This document shows positions 13,405 to 14,164 of a stretch of 64,000 nt of DNA, one piece after another. Position 1 is the stretch's first letter. Each line of letters begins with the position of its first letter. The DNA is from Eledone cirrhosa (lineage: Eukaryota): the NCBI GenBank assembly GCA_964016885.1, contig OZ024746.1, positions 85,684,001 through 85,748,000 on the forward strand, read 5' to 3'. The notes below the pieces were generated by a model. That model was not told the DNA's origin. It ran no database searches and saw only the letters and a program-made list of their open reading frames with translations. The translations under genes and the position numbers were made by a program.

Positions 13405-14164
13405 GAGTCAGGACAACAACACGACAGTAACATAGACAACATAGAAATTAGAATAATATCTAAACATAGAAATGACCCAGCAGGTAGGCAAATCAGAGAG
13501 GCCAGTGAAATAGAACTTAGAAGGCCAAGGCTAAACAGAAAGAATGAATGGAATAACAACACCAACCAAACAAACAACACTGACTTAAGAGAAGTATAAA
13601 TAAATAAATAAATAAATAGATAAATAAATAAATAAATACATACACAAGCACAATAACAACAAACACATATAAACACACACTAGTAAAGATAGAATACATT
13701 AACTAATACACAGTCACCCAATCACGAACACACATCAAACAAAACACTATACACACACGCAAACGCATGCGCAAAGAAGACAAAATAAAATAAACAAATA
13801 AATAAATATATAAACAGACTAAATAAAGATGGCGCAGAAAATACAATGTAACGGGAGGAAACAATAGCACCACTGATGATGTTGCAGATGTGCAACGAAA
13901 GAACTTTGATAAACTATATATATGTGTTTGTGTCTATATTGTATCTGTATTATTTTTGACCGTTGGCAACATTGAGGACCGAATAAATTAGATTACCGAT
14001 ATAAAAGACATAGAAGCGAAAAGCGAAAACCAACCAAACAGTGAGTGTGTTCTGTTATTAATTCTGGCAATATTATACAAATATGACCCTCCCCAAGTAT
14101 AACAATATTTGTTTCGACACACGATTTCATATCAAAAACCTCGCAAAACTAATTCATCGCCGTT
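13405..14164 (+). mobile_element. 5'-truncated Penelope-like element (family C): GIY-YIG C-terminus, 3' region and hammerhead
   Basis: 13405-13599 translates to [49 protein letters not shown], the RxIREAxxIxxxxPxLN signature; hammerhead core at 13873; (TA)n on both sides. Confidence 0.8.
13869..13910 (+). ncRNA. Minimal type-I hammerhead ribozyme motif
   Basis: CTGATGA-T-GTTGCA-gatg-TGCAAC-GAAA-GAAC-TT; perfect 6-bp stem II, weak stem I. Confidence 0.8.

Follow-up and report, generated by a model that had tools for sequence, protein, structure and literature searches.

The window, by which we mean the whole stretch of 64,000 nucleotides of Eledone cirrhosa DNA that was analyzed, very probably holds at positions 13405–14164 a truncated and dead copy of a very abundant Penelope-like element (PLE), sitting in a (TA)n microsatellite and carrying a minimal hammerhead that is predicted to self-cleave (Table 1). 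What the copy retains are the last 61 to 64 codons of the element's open reading frame (ORF), the repeat and the first 27 codons, whose 81 nt form the 3′ terminal stretch of the insertion. A sequence-only reading of the window had taken the frame at 13405–13599 for the end of a PLE endonuclease. Translation of the frame yielded 64 aa that include the string quoted in that reading and end at a stop codon (13597–13599), and the assignment was confirmed by alignment: window positions 13414–13596 corresponded to residues 1149–1209 of an intact 1209-aa ORF (tblastn, 88.5% identity). A GIY-YIG nuclease domain contributes its C-terminal third to the peptide, which closes with an N/T-rich tail and retains the domain's invariant E, I, P, N and E (E110, I114, N122 and the nearly invariant P119 in an alignment of the nuclease part). 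Searched alone against Pfam, the 64-aa peptide gave no GIY-YIG match, its sole row being a spurious Birna_VP5.

Table 1. Coordinates of the insertion, its parts and its putative hammerhead, with the second copy in the window and tandem relatives elsewhere in the genome
Feature	Position	Strand	Basis
Whole insertion (5′-truncated, dead PLE copy sitting in a (TA)n microsatellite)	13405–14164	+	
(TA)n-rich microsatellite, 5′ side (insertion target)	13258–13404		Read directly
PLE ORF remnant, last 64 codons and stop	13405–13599	+	Translation; tblastn; domain invariants
pLTR (pseudo-LTR), non-coding part from stop codon to next ORF start	13600–14082	+	Equivalent stretch between tandem intact ORFs in L115
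Minimal type-I hammerhead motif	13869–13910	+	Sequence, pair counts, column tallies, genome counts, published architecture
Helix I	13869–13872 with 13907–13910	+	
Core CUGAUGA, then unpaired U 13880	13873–13879	+	
Helix II GTTGCA/TGCAAC, 6 bp (loop GAUG, 13887–13890)	13881–13886 with 13891–13896	+	
GAA (G12 A13 A14)	13897–13899	+	
Helix III, 2 bp, loop AA (H17 = U13906)	A13900-U13905, G13901-C13904		
Predicted cut	between 13906 and 13907	+	
ORF start, first 27 codons (ATG 14083–14085)	14083–14163	+	tblastn, residues 1–27, 100% identity
(TA)n microsatellite, 3′ side	14165–14203		Read directly
5′-truncated pLTR copy of a second family (copy 2)	20394–20650	+	Sequence and tblastn comparison
Pairs of tandem units with open ORFs of 1216–1217 aa	L115 1157–8933; L116 1136–8907		

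Identity and abundance of the element

Fuller genomic copies extend the ORF upstream into a reverse transcriptase (RT) with YVDD, a Cys-rich linker (C-x4-C-x2-C) and a GIY-YIG nuclease with the signature VVY..YIGET..R..EH..H..E..LN..E. The nearest named relative was an uncharacterised RT-domain protein of Octopus vulgaris (63% identity). Twenty longer relatives were gathered for profile and family searches, and their profile matched solved reverse transcriptases in a PDB sequence search (best E = 9e-8); no GIY-YIG chain was found by the PDB sequence searches. Pfam family RVT_1 was matched by 4 of the 20 relatives and GIY-YIG by 4 of 20 at E ≤ 0.01 (below the curated cutoff where the score was seen), while one relative matched the NCBIfam group I intron endonuclease model (E = 1.7e-5) and one a PHROGs homing endonuclease family (E = 0.0046). 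Pfam returned no families for the family's 437-aa ORF or for the intact ORF of 1208 aa. In the ESM Atlas, 20 of 30 matches lay in clusters with PF01541 on 15% of their members, which serves as a lead only. Invariant columns in the alignment of the nuclease part were C9, C14, C25, Y32, C36, Y48, G50, R59, H63, H79, E110, I114 and N122. An AlphaFold model of this part (pLDDT 83.8, pTM 0.76) had I-TevI as its best Foldseek match (E = 1.9e-3, probability 1.00, TM 0.75 by target), with UvrC, T4 EndoII and R.Eco29kI also among the top matches; the top 11 rows were all GIY-YIG nucleases, as were 15 among the 16 rows listed first (to rank 19), and no match was at E ≤ 0.001. With both the fold and the catalytic residues found, the element is a Penelope-like element with an RT and, at its C-terminus, a GIY-YIG nuclease.

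The genome searched comprises 3.0 Gb. The stretch 13840–14110 of the window gave at least 1,834 first-look matches, and the 40 scored ones were 92–100% identical. Used as query, the N-terminal 173 aa brought up 36,625 first-look candidates; an open frame of 1215–1219 aa was present at 56 of the 150 scored places, and for this reason the lineage looks recently active. At those 150 places, many of the 1215–1219 aa frames were paired ~4.13 kb apart, and the intact relatives are tandem units of ~4.13 kb with an ORF of 1216–1217 aa (Table 1; L063 is likewise tandem). The order in L115 and L116 is ORF, stop, ~274 nt, hammerhead, ~210 nt and the ATG of the next ORF (MTLPKYNN...). The tandem array ends ~80 nt past the ATG at a (TA)n run, and the end of the window copy is identical. 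Across 22 family copies with a recognisable 3′ anchor, (TA)n adjoined the 3′ end in 20, and the 3′ ends fell at three nearby points. How far copies reached on the 5′ side varied and was skewed by where the queries began, and hence no fixed 5′ end was concluded.

Inverted partner copies were found in L002, L018, L022 and L025, and the element displays three traits of PLEs: partial tandems that form pLTRs, inverted truncated partners and a variable 3′ extension. By the traits described in the available part of Craig et al. (2021; PMC8557442), it resembles EN+ PLEs (Neptune/Nematis) in these same features, in its (TA)n targets and in the CX2-5CxxC linker (here C-x4-C-x2-C) that precedes a C-terminal GIY-YIG. 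About 10 near-identical copies of the window copy's family (family 1) stand ~60 kb apart at 17.00–17.47 Mb of G000 C12 (L003–L007, L020, L021, L026–L028), and this series looks like a segmental tandem duplication carrying one insertion, not like separate insertions.

Other repeats and elements were observed in the window and near family copies. A second repeat family of ~266 nt, (TA)n-flanked, occupies window positions 14205–14470 on the minus strand; it has at least 1,169 first-look matches (95–98% identity) and short inverted partner pieces, and its window copy shows a hammerhead-like CTGATGA..GAAA with a 7-bp stem. This minus-strand motif (14330–14401) was rejected as a clean hammerhead, the other six copies seen (five loci) having a C.C mismatch in the stem. 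At L041 46–102 (+), another family shows a canonical-looking type-I hammerhead, which Rfam missed at E ≤ 10; it has an 8-bp helix I, a 5-bp helix II and a GUC site, and its helix III bears the self-complementary CAUUAAUG. The only hammerhead row from Rfam was a sub-threshold Hammerhead_HH9 at L073 3040–3111 (+) (30.8 bits versus a gathering threshold of 52, E = 2e-4). Near a family 1 copy, L062 1599–2972 (−) holds a distinct PLE (RVT_1, E = 6.6e-10; GIY-YIG, E = 9.8e-4) that is 25% identical to family 1, and a hammerhead core was not seen in the 800 nt past its stop. Also in L062, at 7996–8679 (+), a retroelement ORF follows a (TA)n run; its Cys-rich start with NIVYKCKV..YIELT could be the N-terminal GIY-YIG of a permuted PLE type, and Pfam found nothing in this ORF. 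Window positions ~48227–51400 are taken up by a long tandem array (period 21 nt) in which at least 138 register-shifted copies were counted.

The hammerhead motif in three PLE families

The CTGATGA of the window copy sits 274 nt past the ORF stop and is followed by U, by GTTGCA-GATG-TGCAAC and by GAAAGAACTTTGA. The stem II that the sequence-only reading had reported downstream of the frame was read directly where Table 1 places it. Pairs of the motif include G10.1-C11.1, A15.1-U16.1 and G15.2-C16.2, with U17 at H17, and helix I runs U-A, G-C, mismatch, U-A. Helix I differs in length between families: family 1 has 2 bp plus one past a mismatch, family 2 has 3 bp and family 3 has 4 bp. Loop 3 self-complementarity is absent in the window's subfamily, which reads AGAACU with central A.A mismatches. 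A descriptor of CTGANGA, 0–1 nt, a stem of at least 6 bp and GAAA found one site in the window, whereas 200 dinucleotide shuffles averaged 0.005. Rfam gave no hammerhead at the sites, either at gathering level on the whole window or at E ≤ 10 on both window copies and family representatives (four loci); this negative is weak evidence because the canonical-looking motif in L041 was missed as well. Folding energies were unremarkable (z −0.8 to −1.3), the minimum free energy (MFE) fold of families 1 and 1y showed the helix II hairpin only, and cofolding of two copies swapped the helix II hairpins into a duplex and was uninformative for helix III. From its sequence, the motif is predicted to self-cleave the RNA of the element.

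That a PLE end is linked to a hammerhead, as the sequence-only reading had proposed, is in keeping with published architecture. Minimal hammerheads (min-HHRs) have been described in the terminal repeats of metazoan PLEs (Cervera and De la Pena 2014, PMC4209133), and according to the available part of that paper helix II has 6–8 bp and helix I 4–5 bp (in D. virilis 2 bp), a nucleotide stays unpaired between A9 and 10.1, the pair G10.1-C11.1 is conserved, 15.2-16.2 or loop 3 is self-complementary, families are rich in compensated changes, in vitro activity is low, and a dimer model is put forward. As compared with that description, the motif studied here agrees in its terminal-repeat location, type-I order, extra unpaired nucleotide, G10.1-C11.1, 6-bp helix II, short and ill-defined helix I, thousands of mostly solo copies and family-level compensated changes. 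It differs in the loop 3 of the window subfamily (AA; the sister subfamily has AU with a G.U pair), in a helix I of 2–4 bp rather than 4–5 bp and in an H17 that is U or A.

The sister subfamily differs from that of the window at loop 3, at 16.2 (C to U, with a G.U pair kept) and at H17 (U to A). Its helix III variant, AGAUUUA, keeps A15.1-U16.1 and G15.2.U16.2, with A at H17; its AGAUUU can pair with itself by way of G.U pairs. Exact copies of this form number 5,657, and the self-complementarity was seen solely in this subfamily, which still has intact ORFs. In the window's subfamily an early break of the ORF is common, namely a one-base length difference in an A run with a stop soon after (L063 7723–7960 and L108 1960–2200 compared with L115 1640–1860), and most of the closest places among the 150 scored had an open frame of only 182 aa. 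Even so, this ORF-broken subfamily has thousands of dispersed copies, a number that points to spread by means of proteins from the intact sister subfamily; the window subfamily was probably moved by them. Every core letter of the hammerhead was retained in the window subfamily despite the broken ORF.

The second copy in the window has its hammerhead motif at 20422–20463 (CTGAATA-T-GTCACA-GATATG-TGTGAC-GAAAGATCTTTGA), with stem II at 20433–20438 (GTCACA) and 20445–20450 (TGTGAC). Its core carries T at G8 (20430), and with G8 changed to U this core is dead; G was present at position 8 in 26 of 30 sampled family 2 copies. The AGATCT of copy 2 is likewise private, A standing at that place in 27 of 30 family copies. 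The sequence-only reading had joined both copies in one family ("Family C"). They belong instead to two PLE families, being identical at 33/41 positions in the hammerhead block and at 30/82 upstream. The reported compensation in stem II is present: between the copies, U-A is replaced by C-G and G-C by A-U, so that compensation is complete in both pairs. First-look matches number at least 3,440 for family 2 (87–93% identity) and at least 1,964 for a third family. In families 2 and 3, longer copies encode nuclease C-termini of their own, with 57–75% protein identity to the intact family, and the hammerhead is therefore common to three coding PLE lineages. Families 1 and 3 were identical at 32/39 positions in the hammerhead block, 21/89 upstream and 88/214 downstream. 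A pattern search for families with a different letter at stem position 2 gave 7 matches versus 14 for the control and no further family. The family was shown in contigs from three of four sequencing runs, and no stem II variant reached 10%. None of the runs recorded as RNA contained the stretch, and contigs do not reveal where RNAs end.

Covariation and conservation across families

A set of 132 blast-located sites from sampled loci was reduced by removing identical 210-nt contexts, leaving an alignment of 106 copies (82 distinct). In this alignment, standard pairs occupied 92.2% of pair cells and helix II was 95.7% paired; the covariation score was reached by none of 500 shuffles, and slid partners were 22–52% paired. 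The signal stems from helix II pairs 10.3-11.3 (CG in 62 rows, UA in 17) and 10.4-11.4 (AU in 64, GC in 16) and from helix I pair 1.4-2.4 (GC in 36, AU in 18, unpaired in 28; G-C in family 3 and A-U in family 1). A15.1-U16.1 was A-U in 79 of the 82 distinct rows. Genome-wide, a core pattern left open to Y/R at the four covarying positions found 27,462 matches (0 for the reversed-pattern control), of which 26,351 (96.0%) had fully compensated stems, 10,832 in the family 1 state and 15,519 in that of families 2 and 3; these are counts of copies, not of independent events. All other Y/R stem states together made up 1,111 of the 27,462, with no abundant intermediate. Flank identity places families 1 and 2 closer to each other than either is to family 3, which assigns both stem II changes to the family 1 branch. 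Because the compensated changes lie on very few branches (three families), significance of the R-scape type is not attainable.

Families differed from one another only at N7, in the bulge and loop 2, at the two compensated pairs and at 1.3/1.4 and 2.3/2.4, and no family-level change occurred at C3, U4, G5, A6, G8, A9, G12, A13, A14, A15.1 or U16.1. The core letters were near-invariant in family tallies. In family 2 the most variable core column by far was N7 (A 14, T 11, G 5), followed by the CpG at 11.1/G12, which decays as CpGs do. The unpaired nucleotide between A9 and 10.1 was U in families 1 and 2 and G in family 3, while H17 was U, or A in subfamilies, and G was never a family state. Covariation in stem II is thus real at family level as judged from the aligned copies, and it did not vanish in the larger sets (106 aligned copies and 27,462 genome matches). 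The further claim of the sequence-only reading, that RNA structure was under selection in the source elements, is supported with reservations: the family-level covariation stands, while selection can only be inferred from very few independent events, and the core of copy 2 is broken.

Origin and possible role of the motif

That the hammerhead resemblance arose by chance in an AT-rich repeat is extremely improbable. CTGANGA and GAAA are common short motifs, and the minus-strand look-alike at 14330–14401 is perfect only in the window copy; against this, 0.005 sites are expected per window, and the motif is found at the same place in three PLE families and in intact tandem copies. It is also improbable, although far less so, that the conserved block works for the element as an RNA or DNA hairpin but not as a ribozyme, perhaps serving as a binding or positioning site for the RT/EN protein or as part of an internal promoter, with the hammerhead-like letters kept for that role or as a relic. 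Such a hairpin would fit a helix I that is very short, a loop 3 that is non-palindromic in the window subfamily and an MFE fold limited to the helix II hairpin in families 1 and 1y, as well as the low activity of min-HHRs and the insertion without cleavage in vitro reported in the available parts of PMC4209133 and PMC11167929, respectively. However, the invariant letters all coincide with the 13 hammerhead core positions, and N7, the bulge, loop 2 and H17 vary exactly where hammerheads permit, which is hard to explain by a hairpin alone.

The stem II covariation could also have arisen in one event at the DNA level (template switching between inverted-repeat arms) or through descent from two founders, in which case the 96% figure merely counts copies of those founders. 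The compensated pairs stand side by side on a single branch (family 1 versus families 2 and 3), copies are dead on arrival so that their counts are not independent events, and intermediates are not abundant (1,111 of 27,462 in all other Y/R states), all of which speaks for such an origin. We nonetheless consider it unlikely: independently of stem II, helix I shows a third compensated pair, a change in helix III preserves a wobble and every family difference falls at a tolerated position, and conservation of the hammerhead block far exceeds that of its flanks.

Under the preferred reading of a truncated PLE copy with a minimal self-cleaving hammerhead, a transcript running through tandem units would be cut after U13906. 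Cleavage would probably be weak, occurring as a dimer or aided by the element's protein, as reported for other PLEs. The RT may start copying inside the RNA, at sites just past the ORF start, and an internal start of this kind would explain why copies end near the ORF start and not at the ribozyme; the nuclease would nick TA repeats. Active source elements may be under selection to keep the hammerhead, as suggested by three families (nucleases 57–75% identical) that keep the core and differ only at tolerated positions.

Poseidon PLE PAc of the lizard Anolis carolinensis, as described in the available part of PMC11167929, is similar in having a hammerhead in the repeat, an AT-rich target and ends at internal RT starts rather than at the ribozyme; its reverse transcription starts at two sites inside the RNA, its ribozyme needed the protein, and mutants of its hammerhead are reported to insert in vitro all the same. 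The PAc ORF begins at helix II and encloses the cut site, whereas the hammerhead described here lies ~210 nt upstream of the ATG. Metazoan non-LTR retrozymes share type-I hammerheads linked to PLE repeats and a very high copy number, but in the available parts of the sources (PMC7229834; bioRxiv 10.64898/2026.07.22.740005) they are short tandem non-coding units with canonical hammerheads, in contrast to the coding-competent PLEs and truncated copies found here.

The case in itself matters little, as hammerheads in PLE repeats, their minimal architecture and family-level compensation were published in 2014 (in the available part of PMC4209133). It adds a clean example from three families whose differences all occupy positions where hammerheads tolerate change, a second helix III form whose self-complementarity is limited to the subfamily with intact ORFs, and a lineage (open frames of 1215–1219 aa at 56 of 150 scored places) suited to testing the role of the PLE hammerhead. 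It is a rather doubtful proposition that the hammerhead is a requirement in cis for spread in vivo and not a passenger. If true, this would run counter to the finding in vitro that PLE insertion works without the ribozyme, and an animal lineage would be at hand whose dozens of intact copies allow the role of the PLE hammerhead to be tested.
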